A stretch of DNA of 20,000 nt. Origin: an uncultured virus (IMG/VR IMGVR_UViG_3300026254_000003) (taxonomy: Duplodnaviria; Heunggongvirae; Uroviricota; Caudoviricetes). The stretch lies in the IMG/VR virus record IMGVR_UViG_3300026254_000003. One strand, written 5' to 3'. Within the stretch, counting starts at the first letter, position 1. The number at the start of each line of letters is the position of its first letter. Both the position numbers and the translations under genes were made by a program. Of the stretch, positions 2,674 to 18,759 are shown piece after piece. The notes under the pieces were generated by a model that was not told the DNA's origin, made no database searches, and saw only the letters and a list, made by a program, of their open reading frames with translations.

Positions 2674-3294
2674 TTAGTTGACGAGGTCGAAAAACTGACC
2701 ATACGTGATCTCACTAAAACCTTCCGGCACATCAACGGGCTCGTCAACAGGCGGGGCATCGCCCGTGCGCTCGGTGTACTTGGGCACGCGAAGCACAGCA
2801 ACATCCTCGCCATTATCATCTTTGGCAATACCGAAGTTTGTCGATATCATTGAACTGGCGCTGCTGTTAGGCACGCGATCGCCAATCATGGTTCGCATCA
2901 GGTTATTAGAAGAAATAAACCAGTCGCTAAGGTACGGATACTCGGTCAGTGCGTCATTGGCTTTGGCAACAAGGGCGTTCAGTGCCTTACCAAGCTTATG
3001 ATTGCCTTTGCCACCGACAATCGCCACTTTCTCACCGTTATGCTCACGGGTGTCATGGACTTTAATGTGCGAGGCAGACACAATTGGGTGAGCGACGGGG
3101 TAGACCAAATAGCGAATGCTAGACGCCCTGCCCCAGTTGGACGCTTCAGTATGCGCGACGGCACCACCGGCTTCGATATAAAGCGAGTTCACAATTTCAT
3201 CACGCTTAGGGGCGATGTTGGCATCAAAGTTACTCAATATCGCTTTGGCTGCATCAGGCGTGCTGACAAAGTAAAAGTAGCGTTTTTCGTTCAT
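2674..3294 (-). CDS. Hypothetical protein (MNEKRYFYFV..., 206 aa)
   Basis: ORF 2674..3357. ATG 3294 with AAGGA RBS avoids overlap with the upstream gene. Confidence 0.8.
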   Translation of the reverse strand: MNEKRYFYFVSTPDAAKAILSNFDANIAPKRDEIVNSLYIEAGGAVAHTEASNWGRASSIRYLVYPVAHPIVSASHIKVHDTREHNGEKVAIVGGKGNHKLGKALNALVAKANDALTEYPYLSDWFISSNNLMRTMIGDRVPNSSASSMISTNFGIAKDDNGEDVAVLRVPKYTERTGDAPPVDEPVDVPEGFSEITYGQFFDLVN

Positions 3295-3319
3295 GATTGA
3301 GATTCCTTGTGAGGGCAGC

Positions 3320-3541
3320 TTACTGCCCAAGTGGATAAGTGACGCGCTCGGCAGCACGCTGCTTTTTGATACTGCGCATTAGCGCAACAGAGCCTGCACT
3401 TCTCGCAGCCACTTCACATTCAGAGTGATTGGGAAAAAGCGCAGTGTAATACGATGCCGGCTTATCACTCTTCTTTGCGCGTTCTGACGCTGAAGGTGAA
3501 AGGATAACGGGTTGATTACAGTATTTGCATATTGACGGCAT
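3320..3541 (-). CDS. Small putative Zn-binding protein (CxxC...HxxC), 73 aa
   Basis: MPSICKYC...NHSEC. ATG 3541 follows the GGAGG of cassette 3. Confidence 0.8.
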   Translation of the reverse strand: MPSICKYCNQPVILSPSASERAKKSDKPASYYTALFPNHSECEVAARSAGSVALMRSIKKQRAAERVTYPLGQ

Positions 3542-3547
3542 GACGGC

Positions 3548-3598
3548 CTCCTGTTGTGTTGACAAGACAAGTATCTCAAATGGTGTGAGCGTTGTCAA
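3548..3598 (-). promoter_or_regulatory. Conserved promoter/RBS cassette, copy 3
   Basis: TTGACA (3598-3593)-N17-GATACT (3575-3570)-N5-TGTCAA (3564-3559)-CACAACAGGAG. Confidence 0.9.
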
Positions 3599-4974: not shown

Positions 4975-5025
4975 CCTCTGTTGTGCTGACAGAGCGAGTA
5001 TTGCAAAAGCTGTGTTTTTTGTCAA
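4975..5025 (-). promoter_or_regulatory. Conserved promoter/RBS cassette, copy 4
   Basis: TTGACA (5025-5020)-N17-AATACT (5002-4997)-N5-TGTCAG-CACAACAGAGGA. Confidence 0.8.
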
Positions 5026-5880: not shown

Positions 5881-5931
5881 CTCCTGTTGTGTTGACAGGA
5901 TTAGTATCTCAAAAACTGAGAGTGTTGTCAA
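5881..5931 (-). promoter_or_regulatory. Conserved promoter/RBS cassette, copy 5
   Basis: TTGACA (5931-5926)-N17-GATACT (5908-5903)-N5-TGTCAA (5897-5892)-CACAACAGGAG. Confidence 0.9.
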
Positions 5932-6198: not shown

Positions 6199-6249
6199 CT
6201 CCTGTTGTGTTGACCATGTCAGCGTCTCAAAGTCAGAGAGCGTTGTCAA
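6199..6249 (-). promoter_or_regulatory. Conserved promoter/RBS cassette, copy 6
   Basis: TTGACA (6249-6244)-N17-GACGCT-N5-GGTCAA-CACAACAGGAG. Confidence 0.8.
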
Positions 6250-6490: not shown

Positions 6491-6541
6491 CTCCTGTTGT
6501 GTTGACAGTTTAAATATATCAATAAATTTGACAAAGTGCAA
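6491..6541 (-). promoter_or_regulatory. Conserved promoter/RBS cassette, copy 7 (variant)
   Basis: TTGCAC (6541-6536)-N17-TATATT-N5-TGTCAA (6507-6502)-CACAACAGGAG. Confidence 0.8.
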
Positions 6542-7120: not shown

Positions 7121-7612
7121 TTAGGAAGAGGTTTCTTCTGGCTCAACGAGAATAACACCTTTTCCGCTAACAGGGCTGATCACGCCTTCATCGTCTCCGA
7201 GCCTTGATATGTATGCGCTGTCCACGCCAAACATGGCGTCAGTACCACGGTCTTTGTAGATAACGATGTCGACGGGAAGTTGCGTGTCAGGATCGGTGAC
7301 CGTGACTTCTTTGACATACATGGCGGTATCAGACGATGTGGGCGGTATGTTCTTCTCTGTGAGGTAGTCGATGGTTTTAACCCAATCCACTTCTGCTGAT
7401 GTCGTACTCATAATGACGTCGTAGATGCCGTAGTCCACATGACTATGGGCTTCCTTTAACCGGGCGATCAGCGTCGATGCTAAACGCTCAAAGACCTCGT
7501 CATCCCCCACTTGATCTGAGGTTAAGACAGGCACTCGGTTAACCAATACAGCTAATGATTTAACGTTGGCAAAAAATGCGCGAATGAGCGTAACGGTGAC
7601 ATGCTTATACAT
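7121..7612 (-). CDS. Hypothetical protein, 163 aa
   Basis: ORF track; AAGGGA RBS. Confidence 0.8.
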   Translation of the reverse strand: MYKHVTVTLIRAFFANVKSLAVLVNRVPVLTSDQVGDDEVFERLASTLIARLKEAHSHVDYGIYDVIMSTTSAEVDWVKTIDYLTEKNIPPTSSDTAMYVKEVTVTDPDTQLPVDIVIYKDRGTDAMFGVDSAYISRLGDDEGVISPVSGKGVILVEPEETSS

Positions 7613-7679
7613 GGCGTTCCCTTTATCAATGAGACTGTGAAGGCGCCGAAGCGCCTAGCTGTAGCGTAAAACGAAGTGG

Positions 7680-7922
7680 CTATTTAAAGATAGCCAGCAC
7701 GTCTGCACTGAGGAACTCTGATTTAACCAGAATGCTGGTGATTTCTTCGCTGAGGGGGTCAACGTTCAGCAAGTAGAAGCCTTCTTCTTTTTGTCTGATG
7801 AACGTATAGGTGTCCAAGCAAGCGAGCGTATCAGAGACCGTTACCGTACCGTGCAAGTCTTCCGTTTTCGCCTTTTTCATGCGACGGTCTTCGTTGAGTT
7901 CAAGTAAACGAGATACTTTCAT
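7680..7922 (-). CDS. Hypothetical protein, 80 aa
   Basis: ORF track; follows cassette 8 (CAGGA RBS). Confidence 0.8.
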   Translation of the reverse strand: MKVSRLLELNEDRRMKKAKTEDLHGTVTVSDTLACLDTYTFIRQKEEGFYLLNVDPLSEEITSILVKSEFLSADVLAIFK

Positions 7923-7931
7923 GTGTGCATT

Positions 7932-7984
7932 CCTGTTGTTGTGTTGACGGTTATTATATTAACAACAAACACAGCCTGTGTCAA
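7932..7984 (-). promoter_or_regulatory. Conserved promoter/RBS cassette, copy 8 (variant)
   Basis: TTGACA (7984-7979)-N17-TAATAT-N6-CGTCAA-CACAACAACAGGA. Confidence 0.8.
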
Positions 7985-8008
7985 CAAACACAGGCCACAA
8001 ATTGATGG

Positions 8009-8635
8009 TTATCTGTCTTGTGCCGAACGGGCATTGCGAAGCGCATCCGTGACACTCTCAACATCAGATTGAAAGCGCTCTAGGGCGCGATATTTCTCCG
8101 CAGCCTGTTTAACAGGCAACATGGTGTCGTCGGTCACTTCATCAAACTCTGCGTGAAGAAACTGCGCAATACGTGGTGGGAAAGCAATCAACACTTCGTT
8201 TATAGCGTCAGTGCCAGACTCAATAACGTCTTCAAGGCGGTCGCACAAGCGGTTCCAGCGCTCAAGCTCATCGACCGCTGCATGTAGTTCATTACTGAGT
8301 AAATCCCACATGACGGCGAAGGGTGCATCGCATCCCCAATCAGGGTGCGAAACGAGGGAGCCTTTAAATGTGATGGCTTCACCAAGTTCTATGGGAAGTA
8401 AGTCAGAATGTGGATAGTTGGCGTAAAGAAGCCCTCGCAATGCGACAACGTCCGATGGCAGTGGTTTGTCATCGTTACGCGTAGCAGTTGCGTTGTCTCG
8501 CGCCTGTATACTTCTGTAGCCTTCATGCTTAGTAAGAACATCAAGGACGGTGCTCTGTTTGACGTGTTTTGCGTTGTCTTTAGTTTGACAAGCAGTAACA
8601 ATGGCGGTGGCAAGGTGGCGTAATGGGTTGCTCAT
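8009..8635 (-). CDS. Leader-associated protein A (MSNPLRHLATAIVTACQTKDNAK..., 208 aa)
   Basis: ATG 8635 with GGAG RBS (8648-8645). The N-terminus resembles the 15096-15908 product. Confidence 0.8.
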   Translation of the reverse strand: MSNPLRHLATAIVTACQTKDNAKHVKQSTVLDVLTKHEGYRSIQARDNATATRNDDKPLPSDVVALRGLLYANYPHSDLLPIELGEAITFKGSLVSHPDWGCDAPFAVMWDLLSNELHAAVDELERWNRLCDRLEDVIESGTDAINEVLIAFPPRIAQFLHAEFDEVTDDTMLPVKQAAEKYRALERFQSDVESVTDALRNARSAQDR

Positions 8636-8835
8636 AATAGCGTTCTCCGAATGTGAATGTTCAAGCCCTACCAATTAACCTTGAAGCCTCACGCGGTAAA
8701 CGATTATAAACGTAAGTGTGCATTCAATGGTGCAAGAGTGGCCGGTCTGTATAAAACAAACACCCAAAGGGCGGTAGGCGGCGTGTGCTGCAACACACAT
8801 TTCGGTCATAGCGTCGTAACGCTCTCGAAACTTGT
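8636..8835 (-). ncRNA. Putative structured 5' leader with pseudoknot, copy A
   Basis: Stem 8660-8665/8680-8685. Loop 8667-8672 is complementary to 8773-8778. Adjacent CCC-AAA-GGG hairpin. Imperfect closing helix 8647-8661/8792-8805. Promoter TTGACA (8867-8862)-N16-TATTAT. Confidence 0.55.
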
Positions 8836-8868
8836 GTTAATAATACCAGTATTGATTAAAATGTCAAT

Positions 8869-8907
8869 AAAAAAGAAGCGAGGTTATGGCGGGGGAAACT
8901 CGCTTCT
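8869..8907 (-). terminator. Intrinsic terminator
   Basis: Minus strand AGAAGCGAG...CTCGCTTCT followed by a T-tract, downstream of the 8929 stop. Confidence 0.7.
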
Positions 8908-8928
8908 GTGTTGTTGATTGATTATTAA

Positions 8929-9288
8929 TTAGGACTCGGCGGTAGATTTTAATGATTCCGCCATCGTTTGCAGTACGGTTGCGCCCAACCCACGTGCGGT
9001 TTTGGCCCCACGGTTGGTAACATAGCGGCCATCAGCACCTGTCTTTAGTCCAAGCATTTGTGCAATGGCGTTGCCCACATTTTCTTGCGCTGAGGCGCTT
9101 GCTTCATCGCCTGAATCGTCCATCATTAACACGGTTGAGATGGCATCAAGTTGCGTTGGCGAAACGCTAAGTTGGTTCGTCTTGCCGGATACGGCTCCAT
9201 ACAGTTGAACAGAAGGTTTAAGGCCATCGCTGTTTTTGTTTTCTAGGCGTGACAGCTGGGTTTTGATGTAGCTTGTTTTTTGCGTCAT
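8929..9288 (-). CDS. Hypothetical protein, 119 aa
   Basis: ORF track; TAAGGA RBS. Confidence 0.8.
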   Translation of the reverse strand: MTQKTSYIKTQLSRLENKNSDGLKPSVQLYGAVSGKTNQLSVSPTQLDAISTVLMMDDSGDEASASAQENVGNAIAQMLGLKTGADGRYVTNRGAKTARGLGATVLQTMAESLKSTAES

Positions 9289-9351
9289 AGCAATTCCTTA
9301 TTAGGCCGCTGACCGCGGCCCTGTGGTTTAGTCAAAAAAAGAAAATGGTGC

Positions 9352-9948
9352 CTAGGCGTTTACGGACTTGCGCACTAACTCGTGATATTGCGCATCAATG
9401 TCATTGAGCATACCATTAGACTCGATGTCACAGCCTTCATAGCCAGAACGTTCGCAAATCATCGTGCCGTCATCATCGACCAGAAGAAAGCCGAAAGTGT
9501 CTTCCGAAATAAAGGCGTCGTACGCTTTAACCTCGGCTTTCATGTGTTCTTTAGCTTGGTTGCAGTGGTGAGCTTCAGTGCCGCCATAATAGGTGTCCAT
9601 GTCGCTGTGCGTCATGTAAATGACTCCGACCTGTCCGCTATCAAAAGCGCATGAGAACGGGATCGTTGACATGGTGATGCCAGAGTGGTCGTAAAGATGC
9701 AGTTCCAAGTAGACGGCAATAATGCCTAAACCTTGAGCCAGTCGAAACAATGATGCAGGATCTTGGCGGTCAAAGTCGGCAGATACTGAATCAAAATCAG
9801 GATGCCCAGAAATCATATCTGAAAGATCACCAGAAGCATCAACATCGCCTAATATATAGCGACGATGTTTGCACAGCATTCGGCCTTTGTTCTCAGCTTC
9901 GCGTGGGTTCAGTGCATCGGTTTCTTGGTAAATAGTAAATGTTGGCAT
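9352..9948 (-). CDS. Acidic hypothetical protein with LYDHSGITMS...FDSGQVG motif (198 aa)
   Basis: ATG 9948 after cassette 9. The motif is recalled from uncharacterised phage/conjugative-element proteins (not database-verified). Confidence 0.8.
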   Translation of the reverse strand: MPTFTIYQETDALNPREAENKGRMLCKHRRYILGDVDASGDLSDMISGHPDFDSVSADFDRQDPASLFRLAQGLGIIAVYLELHLYDHSGITMSTIPFSCAFDSGQVGVIYMTHSDMDTYYGGTEAHHCNQAKEHMKAEVKAYDAFISEDTFGFLLVDDDGTMICERSGYEGCDIESNGMLNDIDAQYHELVRKSVNA

Positions 9949-9956
9949 GAGTGCCG

Positions 9957-10008
9957 CTCCATGTTGTGTTGACAAATCAAGTATCTCAAAACATGTGGGC
10001 GTTGTCAA
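9957..10008 (-). promoter_or_regulatory. Conserved promoter/RBS cassette, copy 9
   Basis: TTGACA (10008-10003)-N17-GATACT (9985-9980)-N5-TGTCAA (9974-9969)-CACAACATGGAG. Confidence 0.9.
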
Positions 10009-10018
10009 TGTTTTAGTG

Positions 10019-10216
10019 TCACGTCACAGCGACGAGCCTTTCATTGGCAATATTAAATTGAGGCTTCATGGGTGCATCGTTGAATCGAACCATCGTTTTT
10101 CCATACGAGTAGCTGTCACATGATACAGTGCCAACATGTCCTTCTAGGGCTTTCAAGTGAGCGTTCATTGAGCCGTGCGCCTTGATAAAACGCACCTTTT
10201 CACCTTCTTTAAACAT
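10019..10216 (-). CDS. Small SH3/KOW-like beta protein (MFKEGEKVRF..., 65 aa)
   Basis: ATG 10216 with AAGGA RBS. F-K-x-G-E-K-V...GxVGTV...VRF pattern. Confidence 0.7.
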   Translation of the reverse strand: MFKEGEKVRFIKAHGSMNAHLKALEGHVGTVSCDSYSYGKTMVRFNDAPMKPQFNIANERLVAVT

Positions 10217-10268
10217 GATAAGTTTCCTTTTAAGAGATGTGGCGAAAGCACGCGCTCTCGCCATATCA

Positions 10269-10688
10269 TTACCAATTTTTAAAGTCTTCTGCGAGCTCAC
10301 CGTCAAGGTTGGCGGCAACCGTTGCTTTCACAATGTCTCGGATGGCGTCAATCCGCGCTTTACTGAGACTGAGATCAAGCGTCCATGTCTCCATGAGTCC
10401 AGAAGCGAAGCTGCACGGTGATTCTGCGTCAAGCAATGAATCAACATGATCACCGTTACCGTTCTCATCATATAAATCGCTAGACAGCATCATACATGAA
10501 GCATTTTGATGCGTATACAGCGCCGTTTTTACAATGATGTAACTGTCTGGATAGCTCGATGTGGCGATGTCATAGAAAGGCAAGTTGAGGTCCTCAATAT
10601 CATCGTAAGACGCCCCAAGTTTCGCCGCTATTTCAGGCAGCGGTGCCGGTGTGATTTTTGATGACAAAACACGATCTAAGAGACTCAT
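10269..10688 (-). CDS. Acidic hypothetical protein, 139 aa
   Basis: ORF track; ATGA overlap with the upstream gene. Confidence 0.8.
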   Translation of the reverse strand: MSLLDRVLSSKITPAPLPEIAAKLGASYDDIEDLNLPFYDIATSSYPDSYIIVKTALYTHQNASCMMLSSDLYDENGNGDHVDSLLDAESPCSFASGLMETWTLDLSLSKARIDAIRDIVKATVAANLDGELAEDFKNW

Positions 10689-11110
10689 AGCAGGCGCACC
10701 CCATCAAGTTGCAAAATACCTAAACCGCTTAATCCTGCTTCAGCGAGGACAGCCTTAGAGCCATCAATGTCGGTCTCAACAATTTCAACTTGAATAAAGC
10801 CGTTGCCGTCAGTGCATGAAGGCAACCTTTTCCAACTTGCTACAACACTGCAATCGTGGAAATTAACGGTCGCTGTTTGCTCGTCGTCATTTTTTTGGAT
10901 GGTGGGTGTTGGCTTATCTTCAAAAACAACATCAACGGTCAAGTTCAGTGGCTTGTAGGCGCTTTTGACGACAATTGACGCGGAGCCATCTTCGTCTTCT
11001 TCATACAGCACATTAAGGCTGACGTTACCAACGCGTAGCGCAAATGACAGCTCATAACCAAGTACGGCTTGCTTGTCGTCGTTTTTATAAATAGGGGTAT
11101 GTGAAAGCAT
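10685..11110 (-). CDS. Hypothetical beta-rich protein (MLSHTPIY..., 141 aa)
   Basis: ATG 11110 after the AAGGA of cassette 10. Confidence 0.8.
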   Translation of the reverse strand: MLSHTPIYKNDDKQAVLGYELSFALRVGNVSLNVLYEEDEDGSASIVVKSAYKPLNLTVDVVFEDKPTPTIQKNDDEQTATVNFHDCSVVASWKRLPSCTDGNGFIQVEIVETDIDGSKAVLAEAGLSGLGILQLDGVRLL

Positions 11111-11117
11111 GTGTATT

Positions 11118-11167
11118 CCTTGTTGTGTTGACAATGTCAGTGTCTCAAATTCTGTGAGTGATGTCAA
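11118..11167 (-). promoter_or_regulatory. Conserved promoter/RBS cassette, copy 10
   Basis: TTGACA (11167-11162)-N17-GACACT-N5-TGTCAA (11133-11128)-CACAACAAGGA. Confidence 0.85.
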
Positions 11168-11180
11168 CATGTCAATGTGG

Positions 11181-11525
11181 TTAGCCAAGCATCGTCAGCG
11201 CTAACGTGGTTTCCCGTGCGCTACCAAATTGATGAACGTGCGCTTTGAGATTAAGTACAAGGTGGTAGTGTTGTTGTAACGCCGATATACGTGTCATGTC
11301 GCCAACGACGCGCGCTTGAAGGTGCTCTATCTCCACCTGTGTTTGCTTAAGCTCAGAGGCGAGTAATGCCACGTTCTCGATGATGTTGCACAATGAGCCC
11401 GTGTCATGCTGTGGGTGAGCATATCGCTTATACAGGCGACGTATACTCGACAATGGGATGTAATAGGCTGGGATGACAATGGTGTCGACCCGGGCCTTAT
11501 CTTGTTTGCGATGAATTGAGTTCAT
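11181..11525 (-). CDS. Hypothetical protein, 114 aa
   Basis: ORF track; same strand, fills the gap; weak RBS. Confidence 0.65.
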   Translation of the reverse strand: MNSIHRKQDKARVDTIVIPAYYIPLSSIRRLYKRYAHPQHDTGSLCNIIENVALLASELKQTQVEIEHLQARVVGDMTRISALQQHYHLVLNLKAHVHQFGSARETTLALTMLG

Positions 11526-11568
11526 TTGTCGTGGCTATCGCTGTCGGAACCAGCAATCACTCATTAAA

Positions 11569-11826
11569 CTAATCATCGTCATCATCATTAGGGTTTTCCA
11601 TGCCCATGATTTCAATGGCGTGGTACATCACGGTGTTTAGCATCGCGTCCTCACCTGCATCACGTTCCATTTTAAGCGCTTCGAGGGCGTGTTCCACATC
11701 GTCACCGATCTCAAATGGCAAGTTGTCACGTTTGCAGAAGCTTTCATATTCCTCAAGCGCACGTTCAACGCAATCTTCCGTAAAGTACTGATCGTAGTAG
11801 CTCGACTTAAATAGTGTATCTGACAT
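11569..11826 (-). CDS. Highly acidic small protein, 85 aa
   Basis: GAGGA RBS. 25 D/E versus 6 K/R, ends in DDDDD. Confidence 0.8.
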   Translation of the reverse strand: MSDTLFKSSYYDQYFTEDCVERALEEYESFCKRDNLPFEIGDDVEHALEALKMERDAGEDAMLNTVMYHAIEIMGMENPNDDDDD

Positions 11827-11869
11827 AAGAAGTCCTCTTGAGAGCGGCCGATGTGCCGCCCTCCATTAA

Positions 11870-12370
11870 TTAAAGATAGGCTTGAACGATATACTTCGCT
11901 GAGCGAATGTGTTGGCAAACGAACGCGCTAAGCTCAGTGATTGCGTCTTGATAGTCAGGCGCAACAAGTGAAGTGTCTTTGAATCGCTCAAGCTCAGAAA
12001 ACACGGTGCGAAAACGAATGTCTTGTTCAATGAGAAGGTCAAACTCCTCTTCTTCCGTATATGCTGGTGGATTCGGGTCGGTCACAATTCGCGCTTCGCT
12101 AATGCCAGTAAGCAGGCGACTCTGGTCGCGGTAACCCACGGCATCCTCGGCCGCCATCAGGGCGTCGCGGAATGACAGCATATTAGTGATAGCAGTGCGG
12201 TGTGCGGTGATACACGTTTCACTCAGCAAGTCGCTTTTCGACAGATTCGTTGCCAGTATGGTAGCAATCTTATCTAACGCGACAACCTGCTCGCTGACGA
12301 CACGCAAAGGCAATGCGAAGCTATCTTGTATCGCTACCGGGTGCTCTGCCGGATAAACAGATGTTGGCAT
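11870..12370 (-). CDS. Hypothetical protein, 166 aa
   Basis: ORF track; follows cassette 11. Confidence 0.8.
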   Translation of the reverse strand: MPTSVYPAEHPVAIQDSFALPLRVVSEQVVALDKIATILATNLSKSDLLSETCITAHRTAITNMLSFRDALMAAEDAVGYRDQSRLLTGISEARIVTDPNPPAYTEEEEFDLLIEQDIRFRTVFSELERFKDTSLVAPDYQDAITELSAFVCQHIRSAKYIVQAYL

Positions 12371-12377
12371 GAAGTTT

Positions 12378-12428
12378 CTCCTGTTGTGTTGACGTTTTTA
12401 TTGTCTCAAAAAGAGAGGCTAAATGCAA
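12378..12428 (-). promoter_or_regulatory. Conserved promoter/RBS cassette, copy 11
   Basis: TTGCAT (12428-12423)-N17-GACAAT-N5-CGTCAA-CACAACAGGAG. Confidence 0.8.
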
Positions 12429-12433
12429 TCTTT

Positions 12434-13060
12434 TTATGCTTTTGAGGCGTCGCCATCAAGGATGTTTTCTGGCGTGTCCTTATATATTTCAGTTAACACT
12501 TTGTGGCGATAATAGCGCGCCATAATCAATGCTGACGCGTAACTTACCATGACGACGGTAAGGTGGACGTCAAAGATCACAAAGCAGGCACCTACCGCCG
12601 CACCTATTGCGGTATAGAGCATATCAAGCTTTGATTTAAGTAACGAATAGTCAGCGCAACCTGCGGTAACAATGCTGGTGGTTTGGTTGAGTATGGGCGA
12701 CATAATAATATTTGAAGAATACGTAACAATTGTCGCAATCGGCAATATCACGTGAGGAAAAACGTCATAGATTGTAAGCATATAGAAAACAAAAGCGAGC
12801 ACCTCAAAACCAATGGCGATATGAAAGGTTTTCATAGGATGCTCTTTAGCCATTTTCCCTAAGGCAGGAATGAAAATAGCAAGGCCAAGTACTGACAGCG
12901 CATAGTTTTTAAGCACTAGTCCATCTGCATTAAATAAATCAACGTACAGCATGACAATTGCTGCGCCAAGCAACGCATTGACAAACAGTAGGTAGAACGA
13001 CATGATTTGTTGATTACGGCGAAGTGGCGACAATGCCGCCACCTCTTTTATTAAATTCAC
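12434..13060 (-). CDS. Integral membrane protein (~6 TM helices, half-MFS-like size)
   Basis: About six hydrophobic segments. The GTG start at 13060 overlaps the upstream TGA (GTGA coupling). Confidence 0.75.
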   Translation of the reverse strand: MNLIKEVAALSPLRRNQQIMSFYLLFVNALLGAAIVMLYVDLFNADGLVLKNYALSVLGLAIFIPALGKMAKEHPMKTFHIAIGFEVLAFVFYMLTIYDVFPHVILPIATIVTYSSNIIMSPILNQTTSIVTAGCADYSLLKSKLDMLYTAIGAAVGACFVIFDVHLTVVMVSYASALIMARYYRHKVLTEIYKDTPENILDGDASKA

Positions 13061-13986
13061 GAGTGTTTTTCTCTCTTTTTTTGCTTCTCGAACCAACGGT
13101 GACCCATTGTCAACGCTTGCAAAGCGAGTTCCCTCTCGGCGTCACGTGATGCTTCATCAGGAGAGCACACGTCATCGTCACCTAACCGAACGTTGTCGCG
13201 TAAGTAATCTGACATTATGTCGTTGAATAAGTCAAAAACATAATGCCCATTGTTGCACGGTTCACTGGATGTGACAGATTCAATGTCGTCGCCATCAAGT
13301 TCAACAGAAACAAACTCATCGTCAAACTCAGCATACTCATTGTTTTTAACTTCCCAAAGAACATTGATGCTGTGGCCACCAAAAAGGAAAGAAACCTTAA
13401 CCTCATAGGCATCACTGCCTGAACGGCTAAACATGGGGCCGTCTAGGTCTTTAATGCGGAATTTAAACGACGATTTGTGTTCAATGAGTTTGTCGCGGTA
13501 GTAAGCGCACAGGGCTGCATTGCTCGTCCATGGTGAAAGCGCATCTCCTTTTACAGCAGCTGCATCACCTGCATTGTCGGTTAACAATTTAAGTAGCTTA
13601 TTGTAAGCGCGTTCAGATTCTCGCTCATAATGTTGCATATCATTGATCATGCTCAATGCGTTGTTCAACATACCCTTCGCCGCATTAAAATCATTGTGCG
13701 TGGGCGAGAGTGGCGCATCTGCATCGCGCTTCAAAAGGGCATAATTCTGACCGGTAAGGATCGTTGCCAATGTTTCTTGCGCGCGCTTTCTGTCCATCGG
13801 TGCATCTTCAAGCGTAAGCGTATCGAGTTGATGGCGTAGCGTATCGAGTTGTGTTTTGTCCTCATCATTGGCTTTGTAGGCCATCTGCTTAATGGCAGCG
13901 GAAACACGATCGCGTGAGGTATGAAGCGTCATGCTGTTACGTAGACGTGTAAGGGCCGCATTGATAAATGAAGTAGTGAATTTCAT
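13057..13986 (-). CDS. Leader-associated protein B, 309 aa
   Basis: ORF track. Helical N-terminal half with RAQETLATILTGQNYALL motif; acidic C-terminal alpha/beta domain. Confidence 0.85.
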   Translation of the reverse strand: MKFTTSFINAALTRLRNSMTLHTSRDRVSAAIKQMAYKANDEDKTQLDTLRHQLDTLTLEDAPMDRKRAQETLATILTGQNYALLKRDADAPLSPTHNDFNAAKGMLNNALSMINDMQHYERESERAYNKLLKLLTDNAGDAAAVKGDALSPWTSNAALCAYYRDKLIEHKSSFKFRIKDLDGPMFSRSGSDAYEVKVSFLFGGHSINVLWEVKNNEYAEFDDEFVSVELDGDDIESVTSSEPCNNGHYVFDLFNDIMSDYLRDNVRLGDDDVCSPDEASRDAERELALQALTMGHRWFEKQKKREKHS

Positions 13987-14155
13987 GATTGTACTGTTTC
14001 CGTTTTCGGTTCAGTTTAACAGCTCGTTCCTCCCTTGCGCCTGTTATTGGAGAACCGCTGGTGACAGTAGTTTCAATAAAAATCAGGTCGGTGTAACTTG
14101 CTAATATGGGCCTTACCCGTTAGGGCGGAGGAGGCAGTCGCTATTAGCGGCGACA
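13987..14155 (-). ncRNA. Putative structured 5' leader with pseudoknot, copy B
   Basis: Stems 14007-14012/14052-14057 and 14017-14022/14041-14046. Loop 14028-14033 is complementary to 14127-14132. Adjacent CCC-GTTA-GGG hairpin. Promoter TTGCAT (14189-14184)-N17-TAATAT (14166-14161). Confidence 0.55.
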
Positions 14156-14196
14156 GTTAAATATTAACAAAATACAGGCATCAATGCAACTATTAT

Positions 14197-14913
14197 TTAT
14201 GGTTTTGAGCGATAGAAAGGAACGCGATTGTTCATGATGCGAAGTTCTGCAATGTTCGCTTCTTTTATCGCTGACTGGCAGCCACCACAGGCATAGAGGT
14301 GACCAGAGAGGTACAGGATGCTGCCTTTTGCTTTATTTCCCGCCGCACGAAGCGCATTAACCTCTGCGTGCCCGTCCTGCTGGCACACGCTTTGACAAAG
14401 TTCGTATCCTTCGCCGGATTTCATGCCCTGCACCTCACGAGGGCATACCTTTTGAGGGTTGCGGCAAAGGTTTGTGCCGGTAAAAGATTCGCCATCTGGG
14501 GTTACCACGGTGGCATAGACGTTTTGTTTAACGCAAGGGCCACCAGCGCTATGAAGCTTAGTTATCCCAATACCATGTTCAAAGTAAGTGACGAAAAAGC
14601 CGGTTGCGTCGTGAAAGAAGTCCGCCACATCTTTGCGATAGAGTGTTAAGTGATTCCTTTTTACATTAACAGTCGTTTTTATTGTATCAATAATGCCATC
14701 AGGCACCATGTCGGCACGCCTAAGAAAGATGTGATTTTCTTGGTCGTTCTTTTGGAGGCTGTTGGCGATAACATATGTCATACCCAGCTCATGAAGCCCT
14801 GAGTGCATGATGAGATTGTCGTCAACAAAAGAAATTCCTTTACCGTCAATAATGCAAGAGGCATCATGGTAGCTTACCTGTAACTCTGGCATTGGGTGGT
14901 GAGAGCATGTCAT
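14197..14913 (-). CDS. Cytidine/deoxycytidylate deaminase-family protein with N-terminal extra domain
   Basis: HAEVNAL...LY...ACGGC Zn-binding motifs (HxE / CxxC) in the C-terminal ~115 aa. Confidence 0.8.
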   Translation of the reverse strand: MTCSHHPMPELQVSYHDASCIIDGKGISFVDDNLIMHSGLHELGMTYVIANSLQKNDQENHIFLRRADMVPDGIIDTIKTTVNVKRNHLTLYRKDVADFFHDATGFFVTYFEHGIGITKLHSAGGPCVKQNVYATVVTPDGESFTGTNLCRNPQKVCPREVQGMKSGEGYELCQSVCQQDGHAEVNALRAAGNKAKGSILYLSGHLYACGGCQSAIKEANIAELRIMNNRVPFYRSKP

Positions 14914-14922
14914 AAATGATTA

Positions 14923-14974
14923 CCTACGTTGTGTTGACAATAGCCATTGTCTCACAGGCAGTGTAGGTAGTCAA
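14923..14974 (-). promoter_or_regulatory. Conserved promoter/RBS cassette, copy 12
   Basis: TTGACT (14974-14969)-N17-GACAAT-N6-TGTCAA (14939-14934)-CACAACGTAGG. Confidence 0.8.
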
Positions 14975-14985
14975 TCACCTCTAAA

Positions 14986-15043
14986 GTGAACTACCCAGCG
15001 ACATCGCTTCGCTCTGTTCACGGGGTTTTCTCGACGATTTTCG
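14986..15043 (-). mobile_element. Possible miniature IS200/IS605-family remnant (PATE-like)
   Basis: Minus strand TTTAT|CGAAAATCGTCGAGAAAACCCC...GGGTAGTTCAC. The GAAxxCCCC..GGGTAGTTCAC pattern resembles IS200/IS605 right ends, and TTTAT is a known family target motif. Confidence 0.5.
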
Positions 15044-15055
15044 ATAAAGAACACA

Positions 15056-15086
15056 AGCGCCACCAGGTTGCCGGTGGCGTTTTTTT
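15056..15086. terminator. Intrinsic terminator (possibly bidirectional)
   Basis: CGCCACC (15058-15064)/GGTGGCG (15073-15079) stem, T7 on the plus strand, T-rich tail on the minus strand. Confidence 0.7.
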
Positions 15087-15095
15087 ATGAACAAA

Positions 15096-15908
15096 TTAAC
15101 GTTTTTCTATTTTACCGGATGCTAAAAACATCTGTTGGCATGCGATGTCACCGCAATTTAACGTTAAATCGCACACCGGCGACAATGTTCGAATGAGCTC
15201 ATGGCCAATCCCGCTGACGAGAAAGGGAATAATGGGGTCGTCACCTTCATCAAACGTAGAGGTTGTTAATCCAGTTAACGAGGAGAATAATTTGCCGCCC
15301 TCATGAAGTGAGATGCTTGTCGCTTGACCAAATCCCATTTCCATCTCGCTGCTAAAGTATTCGGTGATGTCATTTTGCGTTTCAAGTTCTACTTCGTACC
15401 CAATATCACAGGCAGAGAGATCAGCATCATCAAACAGTTTTAATGTCGCATCAACGAGAAGTTTACCGAAGGCCCTAGAGTATTCAACGTTGATAATAAC
15501 GCCAAGATAGCAGGTGGTTTTTTCAGGATCGTCGGTGTATCCCGTCGTTTTTATGGTTAATAATGGAAGGTTCATAAACCAGCTAGGGGCTGGGTCGCTA
15601 CCTGAAATCACTCTACCCACTTCGCCAACACGCGCAACACGCGACATCATGGGGCTAAGTAGTGTGCTGATGAAGGTTGCAGGATCGTCAAAATTGTCGC
15701 TGACTTTTTCATCAAGTAACGCTGATAGCTTGTTTGCGTTTGATGTGCCCATCATGTCAGCGAAATAAGCGAACAATTTGGCGGGTTTTTGGGTGTTTCC
15801 GAAGTGCTTGGCGTTCACGTCATTCATGTGCTGACGCAATGCCTTTGCATCATCTTTAGTGCGCAGAGCATTAACAAGCGTGGTAAAAAATAACTTAGGT
15901 GTGTTCAT
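15096..15908 (-). CDS. Leader-associated protein C, 270 aa
   Basis: ORF track; GGAG RBS. N-terminus TTLVNALRTKDDAK is similar to protein A's TAIVTACQTKDNAK. Confidence 0.85.
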   Translation of the reverse strand: MNTPKLFFTTLVNALRTKDDAKALRQHMNDVNAKHFGNTQKPAKLFAYFADMMGTSNANKLSALLDEKVSDNFDDPATFISTLLSPMMSRVARVGEVGRVISGSDPAPSWFMNLPLLTIKTTGYTDDPEKTTCYLGVIINVEYSRAFGKLLVDATLKLFDDADLSACDIGYEVELETQNDITEYFSSEMEMGFGQATSISLHEGGKLFSSLTGLTTSTFDEGDDPIIPFLVSGIGHELIRTLSPVCDLTLNCGDIACQQMFLASGKIEKR

Positions 15909-16092
15909 ACATCATTCTCCGTATTGCGTGTCTTTTTCTTGCCTTCCCGGGGTGATGACACGCTACAGTTCATAATGTAAACGTGGATTGCTAAATGATA
16001 GCGTAATGTTCATCGTTAATGATATTTGCAAGCGCATGGCGCCGGAAGGCTGCTAGGTTCTCACCTGTGTTTGCCGCACATCACTGTGAAGC
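15909..16092 (-). ncRNA. Putative structured 5' leader with pseudoknot, copy C
   Basis: Stem 15926-15932/15957-15963. Loop 15941-15947 is complementary to 16044-16050. Adjacent GCGC-ATG-GCGC hairpin. Promoter TTGACT (16127-16122)-N17-CAAAAT. Confidence 0.55.
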
Positions 16093-16128
16093 ATTTTCAT
16101 TTTGGCAGTATTGAACATGAAAGTCAAC

Positions 16129-16155
16129 AAAAAAACGCCTAAAATGGCGCTTTTT
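16129..16155. terminator. Bidirectional intrinsic terminator
   Basis: AAAAAAACGCC-TAAAAT-GGCGCTTTTTT. Confidence 0.65.
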
Positions 16156-16185
16156 GTTAACGAAATATTGTGAGGTTTAAGAAGC

Positions 16186-16401
16186 TTATCTTTCAATAAG
16201 CAGCACTATTCGACTGTCATTCTGCGAGAAGCATAAGTCTTCGTGCGAGTGAACCGTTCGCCGGATGTTGGCGATGCGTGCGCCATTCGATGGAGTGCCT
16301 TGTTGCGCGTCAGGATAAAGCGCGTTCATTATCCCCCAGTCGGAATCGCTTCCATTAGGCTGCGTTCGCAAATGGGCCAATATTCGGTCGACAAGTTTCA
16401 T
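16186..16401 (-). CDS. Small protein, possible winged-helix DNA-binding domain, 71 aa
   Basis: ORF track; TGGA RBS. IL..L / IMNALYP / RIANIRRTV helix pattern followed by a beta hairpin. Confidence 0.65.
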   Translation of the reverse strand: MKLVDRILAHLRTQPNGSDSDWGIMNALYPDAQQGTPSNGARIANIRRTVHSHEDLCFSQNDSRIVLLIER

Positions 16402-16421
16402 CGTGCATTCCAGTGATAACG

Positions 16422-17048
16422 TTATGCGCGTAATGCGCTAGGTAATAGGCCGTCTTCAAGTCGTCCACGGATAGTTTCACCATCGCTACGGCGAACATCA
16501 AACAGCGTATGCGGGTCTGCTGGCAGTAGCAAGGTCGCGCTATCAATCGGTGTTCGAGGTTCATCAAGAGGCCAATTGAGCTTCATGGTGAGCTTTACAC
16601 GCTGCGTAGCGTCGTCAAAACCTATATCAAATTTGGGTGTAAATGGGGTGTCGTCAAACACACAGTCAAGACAATAAGGTAGGCTAACATTATTTTGGGC
16701 AAGGGATTCAATGCTCTGGTTATTAACCTCCATACCCGCATCAATCAGCGCGACCCACTGTCCAACAAGTTCAACAAACCACTCGTTTTCCCAACCGTGT
16801 TTTGCACTCCAAATAAATGCCCCTTGCGCGTTCTGTACGTGAGTAAGGTGACGTAAATGTTCTGGGATAGCCTTGCCGACGTAGGCTACCATGTCGGCTG
16901 CACTGACGGCGATTTCCATCCCGCTCTGACGCGAGTTGGTTTTTTGACTGCCTGAAGCATTCTTGCTGGTTTGTGAAAAGTAAAAACGGTACTTTTCCTG
17001 CGGTAGCAACCACAATAAAGGCGGCATAAATTCTGTTGGCGACATCAT
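16422..17048 (-). CDS. Hypothetical protein, 208 aa
   Basis: ORF track; GGGA RBS. Confidence 0.8.
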   Translation of the reverse strand: MMSPTEFMPPLLWLLPQEKYRFYFSQTSKNASGSQKTNSRQSGMEIAVSAADMVAYVGKAIPEHLRHLTHVQNAQGAFIWSAKHGWENEWFVELVGQWVALIDAGMEVNNQSIESLAQNNVSLPYCLDCVFDDTPFTPKFDIGFDDATQRVKLTMKLNWPLDEPRTPIDSATLLLPADPHTLFDVRRSDGETIRGRLEDGLLPSALRA

Positions 17049-17396: not shown

Positions 17397-17447
17397 CTCC
17401 ATTTGTGTTGACTAAAACAGGTTCGCACAGCCTGTGTTTTTTGTCAA
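17397..17447 (-). promoter_or_regulatory. Conserved promoter/RBS cassette, copy 13 (weak -10)
   Basis: TTGACA (17447-17442)-N17-GAACCT-N5-AGTCAA-CACAAATGGAG. Confidence 0.75.
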
Positions 17448-18708: not shown

Positions 18709-18759
18709 CTCCTGTTGTGTTGACAGGATCAGTATCTCAAAATCTGCGATGGTTGTCAA
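18709..18759 (-). promoter_or_regulatory. Conserved promoter/RBS cassette, copy 14
   Basis: TTGACA (18759-18754)-N17-GATACT (18736-18731)-N5-TGTCAA (18725-18720)-CACAACAGGAG. Confidence 0.9.

Follow-up and report, generated by a model that had tools for sequence, protein, structure and literature searches.

In the 20,000-nucleotide (nt) stretch of DNA that was analyzed here, which we call the window (an uncultured virus of the Caudoviricetes, IMG/VR record IMGVR_UViG_3300026254_000003), three minus-strand genes, designated A, B, and C, lie behind long structured leaders. We favor the explanation, with a probability of roughly 55%, that one type of early-gene cassette was duplicated and diverged to give A and C, in a hyperplastic region of an uncultured marine phage where cassettes are shuffled, and that B is a third cassette with the same regulatory design. 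Such a cassette would open with a terminator, and a sigma-70-type promoter of its own would come next. This would be followed by a leader of 170 to 200 nt whose long 3' hairpin is predicted to hold the ribosome-binding site and the AUG in its base, and an apical GGNAGG in that hairpin could pair with an upstream CCUNCC to form a pseudoknot or an alternative pairing. The encoded protein would combine an N-terminal region that is short, basic, helical, and held by purifying selection with a fast-evolving acidic alpha/beta body. The unit duplicated in A and C would comprise the promoter, the start-masking leader, and the N-terminal ~39 codons. The three genes and the segments of them discussed below are as follows.

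8009..8635, minus strand: gene A, 208 amino acids (aa), orphan family, ATG at 8635, from the open reading frame (ORF) and its translation
8519..8635, minus strand: codons 1 to 39 of A, the segment shared with C, from BLASTP, the pair test, and hhalign
13057..13986, minus strand: gene B, 309 aa, orphan family
15096..15908, minus strand: gene C, 270 aa
15705..15908, minus strand: codons 1 to 68 of C, the conserved helical N-terminal region of the C family and the best conserved block of alignment A7

The peptides that a first-pass annotation of the DNA had quoted for the three proteins were all recovered, on the minus strand, where it had placed them, and its proposal that A aligns with C was confirmed. 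BLASTP aligned residues 1 to 39 of A with residues 1 to 37 of C (16 of 39 identical, ~41%; E = 8e-4), and the alignment begins at the first residue of each protein. The first 40 aa and the first 120 nt of the 26 minus-strand genes with clear ATG starts (of ~42 ORFs) were compared in all 325 pairs. A and C formed the top pair both at the protein level (score of 56 against a mean of 17.3 and a standard deviation [SD] of 4.0; z of ~9.7 against the other 324 pairs) and at the DNA level (score of 17 against a mean of 8.2; SD, 1.3), and their protein score was reached by none of 5000 shuffles. A comparison of the N-terminal sub-alignments with hhalign gave an E value of 0.005 over 40 columns. Inspection of distant members of both families revealed a shared core, T-x-D-[DN]-A-K-x-[VL]-[KR]. 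We consider it quite probable that the match between A and C reflects real homology of a short stretch.

Within the window, long structured leaders were found in front of A, B, and C only. Their elements, and the promoter-like sites that precede those of A and C, are listed here.

8636..8835, minus strand: A leader, ~200 nt, 5' end inferred from the promoter
8773..8778, minus strand: A element X, CCUACC, complementary to element Y, 106 nt downstream
8667..8672, minus strand: A element Y, GGUAGG, near the apex of the 3' hairpin and 37 nt before the AUG
8840..8867, minus strand: A promoter-like site, TTGACA-16-TATTAT, TG extended (11 of 12 in a consensus scan), directly after a terminator-like hairpin
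13987..14155, minus strand: B leader, ~170 nt, conserved in six of six loci
14127..14132, minus strand: B element X, UCCUCC, which pairs with Y; a U-A pair becomes C-G in L005 and L006
14028..14033, minus strand: B element Y, GGAGGA, in the apical loop of the 3' hairpin and 47 nt before the AUG
15909..16095, minus strand: C leader, ~187 nt
16044..16049, minus strand: C element X, CCUUCC, complementary to element Y, 102 nt downstream
15942..15947, minus strand: C element Y, GGAAGG, 39 nt before the AUG
16099..16155, minus strand: C terminator-like hairpin (16130 to 16155) and then a promoter-like site, TTGACT-17-CAAAAT

Each of the three genes is preceded by a terminator-like hairpin and then by a promoter-like site of its own, and their upstream regions are the three longest in the window. 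The promoters of A and C resemble each other (score of 15 against 7.7; SD, 1.4), and none of 1000 shuffles reached this similarity. In the minimum-free-energy folds of all three leaders, Y is located at or near the apex of a long 3' hairpin and the Shine-Dalgarno region is located in its base. The AUG itself is paired in the predicted hairpin base in A and C, and the B stem ends 7 nt before the AUG. X and Y are spaced 99 nt apart in B. Across the whole window, the pattern CCTNCC followed by a complementary GGN'AGG was found only in the leaders of A and C, and the middle base of this X/Y pairing is compensated between the two leaders, being A-U in one and U-A in the other. In primary sequence the leaders of A, B, and C are mutually dissimilar, with scores equal to the shuffle means. 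The leaders are most simply explained as cis-acting translational controls that would mask the start codon; a cis-acting switch of this kind would need no protein, because intramolecular pairing, which would mask the start codon, accounts for the shared leader elements.

Between genomes, the leaders are better conserved than the coding sequences that they precede. When the window locus (L001) was compared with L002, the A leader was identical at 200 of 200 positions and the A coding sequence at 605 of 627, and the C leader was identical at 187 of 187. The corresponding values for C in L001 and L004 were 185 of 187 for the leader and 746 of 813 for the coding sequence. B is more divergent, with 145 of 169 leader positions and 592 of 932 coding positions identical in L002, and 131 of 175 and 530 of 959, respectively, in L005. 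The sole DNA similarity between L001 and L005 extends from the 5' end of the B leader to ~250 nt into B (~83 codons; positions 9833 to 10248 of L005), and the same similarity is present in L006. L005 and L006 share no window gene other than B and lack the short promoter motif described below. As a separate observation, L005, a 31-kb contig, and L006 carry a TnpB-like gene (13054 to 14223 in L005), an IscB-like gene with RRXRR and HNH domains (16874 to 18241 in L005), and PLD-like and ASCH genes.

Several results weigh against the interpretation of A and C as diverged duplicates and of B as a cassette of the same design. The stretch shared by A and C is only ~39 residues long, the full-length profile comparisons of the two proteins are weak (E values of 0.072 and 0.031; probability under 2%), and a hidden Markov model (HMM) of the C-family N-terminal domain returned A as its best nonfamily match among 1035 ORF segments at an E value of only 0.31. 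The primary sequences of the A and C leaders are similar at chance level (score of 9.0 against a shuffle mean of 9.0), and homology of A and C at the level of the unit rests on an architecture found post hoc, because the leader primary sequences are dissimilar. The leader folds are not unusually stable compared with shuffles (z of -1.1 to -1.7). A proposed 39-pair structure for the B leader, which includes the pseudoknot helix, has 98.1% of its cells paired and two pairs changed on both sides, against 27 to 43% for slid controls, and this covariation evidence is limited because the structure was derived from the same four distinct sequences, at six loci. An AlphaFold2 model of C built from 13 sequences (mean predicted local distance difference test [pLDDT] of 76.7; predicted template modeling score [pTM] of 0.67) contains N-terminal helices at residues 2 to 14, 18 to 36, 42 to 52, and 58 to 71, with a pLDDT of only 56 to 71, and the model of B was unusable (pLDDT, 42.9; pTM, 0.27). 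In addition, no family or fold match was found to back the host-directed effector function that we propose below.

Some of these weaknesses would be expected if the resemblance between A and C were a chance similarity of two helical, lysine-rich N termini: the alignment is short, the hhalign probabilities are under 8%, and the HMM E value is 0.31. Chance is nevertheless highly improbable, given the shuffles and the z score of the pair test, the top rank of the same pair at the DNA level, and the fact that A and C are singled out independently by their leaders and promoters. In a second alternative, the 5' ends of two unrelated cassettes of this phage lineage would have exchanged sequence recently, through a recombination or gene-conversion tract, and the proteins would have no common origin. 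Such a tract would account for the DNA similarity of the first codons (17 against 8.2; SD, 1.3) and of the promoters, including the spacer TCAATACTG, which is absent from the C promoter of L004, and for the observation that the window's own C is closer to A (BLASTP E value of 8e-4) than the C-family profile is (HMM E value of 0.31); the region is also visibly mosaic. We regard this as rather unlikely. The intervening ~190 nt of leader have no primary similarity, so that a single recent tract is insufficient, and the core motif is kept in divergent members of both families on other contigs (for example, P0050, P0054, and P0056). Moreover, a protein identity of ~41% in the shared coding stretch indicates that the similarity is not recent.

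Relatives of the three proteins were then used to compare the N termini with the remainder of each protein. The C family consists of 11 representatives at E values of ≤0.001 among 1.84 billion proteins; apart from a single piece of 90 aa, all are 254 to 282 aa long, and in the majority of them the match spans most of the sequence. Relatives of A fall into five clusters, and all A homologs begin MSN..L; those of B fall into three clusters, its own included, and B is 44% identical in L005 and L006. In every family, conservation is far higher in the N-terminal part than in the remainder: 74% versus 41% (C versus P0006), 59% versus 9% (C versus P0056), 71% versus 31% (A versus P0050), and 59% versus 35% (B versus P0053). 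In codons 1 to 59 of C, L001 and L004 differ by 10 synonymous changes and no amino acid change, and therefore selection acts on the protein. The modular pattern envisaged by the first-pass annotation thus holds in part: the N terminus is better conserved than the rest in each family, A and C have ~39 residues, resembling promoters, and one leader architecture in common, all three proteins join a basic N terminus to an acidic body, and the C-terminal regions are mutually unrelated at the sequence level, as it had stated, but a domain common to all three proteins was not recovered.

This conservation gradient would also be expected if the N terminus were a targeting or docking signal that is unlinked to the leader and that serves capsid packaging and injection or contact with a constant host or phage protein. 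Purifying selection at the protein level and the allelic replacement of B between near-identical strains could be read in the same way, as could an analogy with the internal proteins of phage T4, which is considered below. A signal of this kind is unlikely, since sigma-70-type promoters in an early-type block would speak against virion proteins, no cleavage motif or partner was identified, and short signals are typically far smaller than the shared stretch.

A third proposal, that of the first-pass annotation, is that A, B, and C have one N-terminal domain in common, which binds the cognate leader RNA, for autoregulation or formation of a ribonucleoprotein, and carries variable effectors. The confinement of long structured leaders to these three genes in the window is consistent with this proposal, and so is the distribution of charge. 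The first 50 residues have a net charge of +2.8 in A, +2.6 in B, and +4.7 in C, and the remainders have net charges of -14.8, -15.5, and -18.1, respectively; among the 17 proteins of at least 150 aa, these are the three most extreme cases of a basic N terminus with an acidic rest. Leader and N-terminal coding sequence are also conserved jointly, the B leader and ~250 nt of B being the only DNA shared by L001 and L005, and a precedent is provided by T4 gene 32, whose autogenous translational repression through a leader pseudoknot is described in PMC535899. The proposal is nonetheless very unlikely as formulated. B is not significantly similar to either A or C and lacks the A/C motif, no RNA-binding family matched A, B, C, or five further family members, and confidence in the N terminus of the C model is low to moderate. 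Furthermore, A and C share an N terminus while their leaders differ in primary sequence, and the shared leader elements pair with each other. RNA binding by the N terminus may occur but is not the explanation that we favor.

A related idea is that the leader and the N-terminal module form a mobile unit, in which basic N-terminal helices would recognize their own start-masking pseudoknot leader, of a class absent from Rfam, and behind which effector bodies would have been grafted repeatedly. The B unit may be an example, because it is common to two otherwise unrelated genomes. We consider this idea quite unlikely. A search of the whole window with cmscan against the 4227 families of Rfam gave no match at an E value of ≤1.

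The assignment of B to the same protein family as A and C was not upheld. The best BLASTP E values for B are 0.43 against A and 0.13 against C, all of its hhalign E values lie between 0.076 and 0.41 (0.18, 0.076, 0.097, 0.41, and 0.28, of which 0.41 and 0.28 are those for the B-C and A-B N termini), and it was not matched by the C-family HMMs. The B protein appears to be either unrelated to A and C or diverged beyond recognition, and homology is not demonstrable. A match between residues 146 to 167 of B and residues 37 to 53 of C (G[DN]..P...LFAY[YF].D) reached E values of only 0.076 to 0.097 and was dropped. The helix-Gly-helix segment that had been described as common to all three proteins did not correspond between A and C, as Gly39 of A pairs with Gly37 of C and not with Gly54 of the segment quoted for C. 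In the C model the arrangement is helix 42 to 52, Gly54, and helix 58 to 71, and in the low-confidence B model it is helix 63 to 78, Gly79, and helix 81 to 87. The suggested likeness to Glyoxalase_8-like N-terminal domains found no support either: hmmscan of A, B, and C at an E value of ≤1 listed no glyoxalase family, the same was true of 13 C-family members, and the best Pfam matches of A, B, and C are to unrelated families (E values of 0.075 to 0.28).

As a separate observation, the N terminus of the gene at 8929 to 9288 (MTQKTSYIKTQLSRLEN...), just upstream of the unit of A, matches that of B, at 13057 to 13986 (MKFTTSFINAALTRLRN...). With a score of 35 against a mean of 17.3 (SD, 4.0), this pair ranked second of the 325.

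The organization of the remaining genes indicates that A, B, and C lie in a plastic region. A repeat of ~60 nt, which on the minus strand reads TTGACAAC..GAGATACT..GTCAACACAACAGGAG..ATG, was found directly upstream of many start codons; it is a predicted sigma-70-type promoter followed by a short leader. The core of the repeat, GTTGTGTTGAC, was matched 14 times with at most one mismatch, compared with 0.64 expected matches, and all copies have the same orientation. Repeat families D1 to D9 each lie just upstream of a start codon. None of the 14 copies precedes A, B, or C.

544-554, 2555-2565, 3553-3563, 4980-4990, 5886-5896, 6204-6214, and 6496-6506, minus strand: copies of the repeat core
7938-7948, 9963-9973, 11122-11132, 12383-12393, 14928-14938, 17402-17412, and 18714-18724, minus strand: copies of the repeat core, continued

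Comparison of L001 with L002 revealed a mosaic, in which blocks of 96 to 100% identity are broken by indels and replaced blocks. There is also a divergent block at window positions 13024 to 14414 (L002, 9573 to 10963), which takes in B together with its leader, as well as the 3' end of the deaminase gene, and has an identity of 56 to 85% per 200-nt window. B is 62.5% identical between L001 and L002, and its neighbors are 94 to 100% identical. The block looks like the allelic replacement of one cassette, as judged from the sequence comparison. We describe the region as hyperplastic because of the 14 copies of the promoter/leader motif, the mosaic relationship of L001 and L002, and the divergence of B.

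Downstream of C, a bidirectional terminator-like hairpin (15055 to 15082) and a promoter repeat form a branching point (14985 to 15082). RNA-library contigs from three studies diverge at this point into other sequence, with loose ends at 14985, 15025, and 15048, which suggests that other strains may carry different neighbors. Metatranscriptome contigs from four studies cover B with most of its leader, and three of them (X15, X17, and X20) extend over the beginning of C and some of its leader. RNA-library contigs were not used as evidence for transcription or for 5' ends, because they cannot prove these.

The only grounds for a functional assignment of A, B, and C are their early-type context, their acidity, and the speed of their evolution, which suggest that the three proteins may be host-directed early effectors (for takeover or antidefense). 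Their variable bodies would be engaged in an arms race, and the conserved N terminus would contact a constant partner. In the C model, a confident alpha/beta body begins at about residue 76. Foldseek searches with this model against the PDB and BFVD gave nothing at an E value of ≤0.001, and a PDB sequence search gave nothing below an E value of 0.05. A had no match in Pfam, PHROG, PADLOC, or NCBIfam, and no recognizable nucleic-acid-binding domain was found in A, B, or C with Pfam, NCBIfam, PADLOC, PHROG, or PDB sequences, the basic charge of the N terminus being the sole hint of one. A Pfam Globin match for the C family (3 of 13 members; best E value, 0.003) was rejected as subthreshold noise. 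Searches of IMG/VR with A, B, C, the C-family sub-alignments A9, A10, and A11, and the B-leader pattern returned no relatives, nor did searches of GTDB genomes with the C-family alignment and the B-leader pattern; the ESM Atlas gave no usable match for C or A. Among 50,697 GenBank phage records, tblastn with A, B, and C identified no homolog, and megablast with positions 7600 to 16500 identified no DNA match.

All substantial ORFs of the window, ~42 small genes, are on the minus strand. Proteins of the window were found in marine metagenomes, on contigs of up to 230 to 486 kb. Pfam analysis of the 37 ORFs other than A, B, and C recognized only a dCMP-deaminase-type domain (14197 to 14913), plus a subthreshold match to SAM_4. 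The deaminase-type gene encodes 238 aa; its cytidine/dCMP deaminase zinc-binding domain is confined to residues 123 to 224 (Pfam, 26.3 bits; cutoff, 25), and the N-terminal ~120 residues had no match. PHROG matches were obtained for 4 of the 37 ORFs, and 3 of these 4 families have no known function. The gene at 2674 to 3357 is a homolog of EaC, a P22-type early accessory protein, with matches in 66 phage records, mostly of Salmonella and Vibrio phages (best E value, 3e-25). The gene at 9352 to 10008 has homologs in 14 phage records and belongs to phrog_6186, of unknown function, whose members are found in phages of Bacillus, Erythrobacter, Ruegeria, and Sphingobium and in a Nitrosopumilaceae virus. 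The PHROG matches, together with the EaC-like and other phage early accessory homologs, argue for a phage origin, and the EaC homolog places the window among phage early accessory regions. No core phage gene was found within the window. We read the window as an early accessory region of an uncultured marine phage. After B, the ORF at 12434 to 13096 has the look of a multipass membrane protein, judged by eye from its hydrophobic runs. The TTG start listed for this ORF gives it a 40-nt overlap with the end of B, and the true start is probably further in, because the L002 match begins only at residue 13.

If A and C are indeed duplicated cassettes and B shares their design, this phage lineage would have two tiers of early expression. 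The first would comprise many genes behind a standard short promoter/leader cassette, and the second would consist of a small number of acidic proteins that evolve fast and whose long start-masking leaders are more strongly conserved than their own sequences. A, B, and C would then be marked as tightly dosed or timed host-directed effectors, and their leaders would be candidates for a new class of cis-regulatory RNA in marine phages. For an orphan effector family, the pattern of a conserved N terminus with a variable body would also offer a way to find its constant partner. As long as neither host nor function is known, the practical value is modest.

Several known systems share features with these genes. 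The ea regions of P22-like and Vibrio phages are represented in the window by the neighboring EaC homolog; unlike ea-region genes, A, B, and C have no homolog in the GenBank phage records. The internal proteins of T4 carry a short conserved N-terminal capsid-targeting sequence (about 10 aa) on variable bodies. A, B, and C likewise have a short conserved N terminus and rapidly diversifying bodies in a plastic locus, a likeness of pattern and not of sequence, but they lie behind sigma-70-type promoters in an early-type block, and the shared stretch is longer, at ~39 to 68 aa. Hairpins that mask the start codon and translational switches that work by alternative pairing are well known, examples being the MS2 replicase operator and RNA thermometers. 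Here, too, the AUG and the Shine-Dalgarno sequence are in the predicted hairpin base, and a competing long-range pairing could open or lock the hairpin; unlike the known examples, the leaders are much larger (170 to 200 nt) and match no Rfam family at an E value of ≤1. T4 gene 32 is, like A, B, and C, a phage gene with a structured leader and a proposed pseudoknot upstream of the ribosome-binding site, and by prediction a structured leader overlaps the translation start in all three of our genes. gp32 is a known nucleic-acid-binding protein, whereas A, B, and C match no nucleic-acid-binding family. Also unlike in gene 32, the start codon itself is in the long predicted hairpin, and the partner in the pseudoknot is the apical loop of that hairpin.

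The promoter-early stem-loop (PeSL) cassettes of T4-like phages were reportedly described by Arbiol et al. in 2010. According to Comeau, Arbiol, and Krisch (2014; PMC4122927), PeSL motifs mediate cassette shuffling in the hyperplastic regions of these phages. Membership of the present genome among the T4-like phages is indicated neither by core genes, none of which lie in the window, nor by a DNA match among GenBank phages. Unlike PeSL cassettes, A, B, and C are without the short repeated motif and instead have long, individually distinct, structured leaders. The region around them resembles PeSL regions in that small orphan genes on one strand are separated by a repeated composite terminator/early-promoter motif, here present in 14 copies. 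It also resembles them in the indels and replacements between the near-identical genomes L001 and L002 and in the branching of RNA-library contigs at 14985 to 15048.

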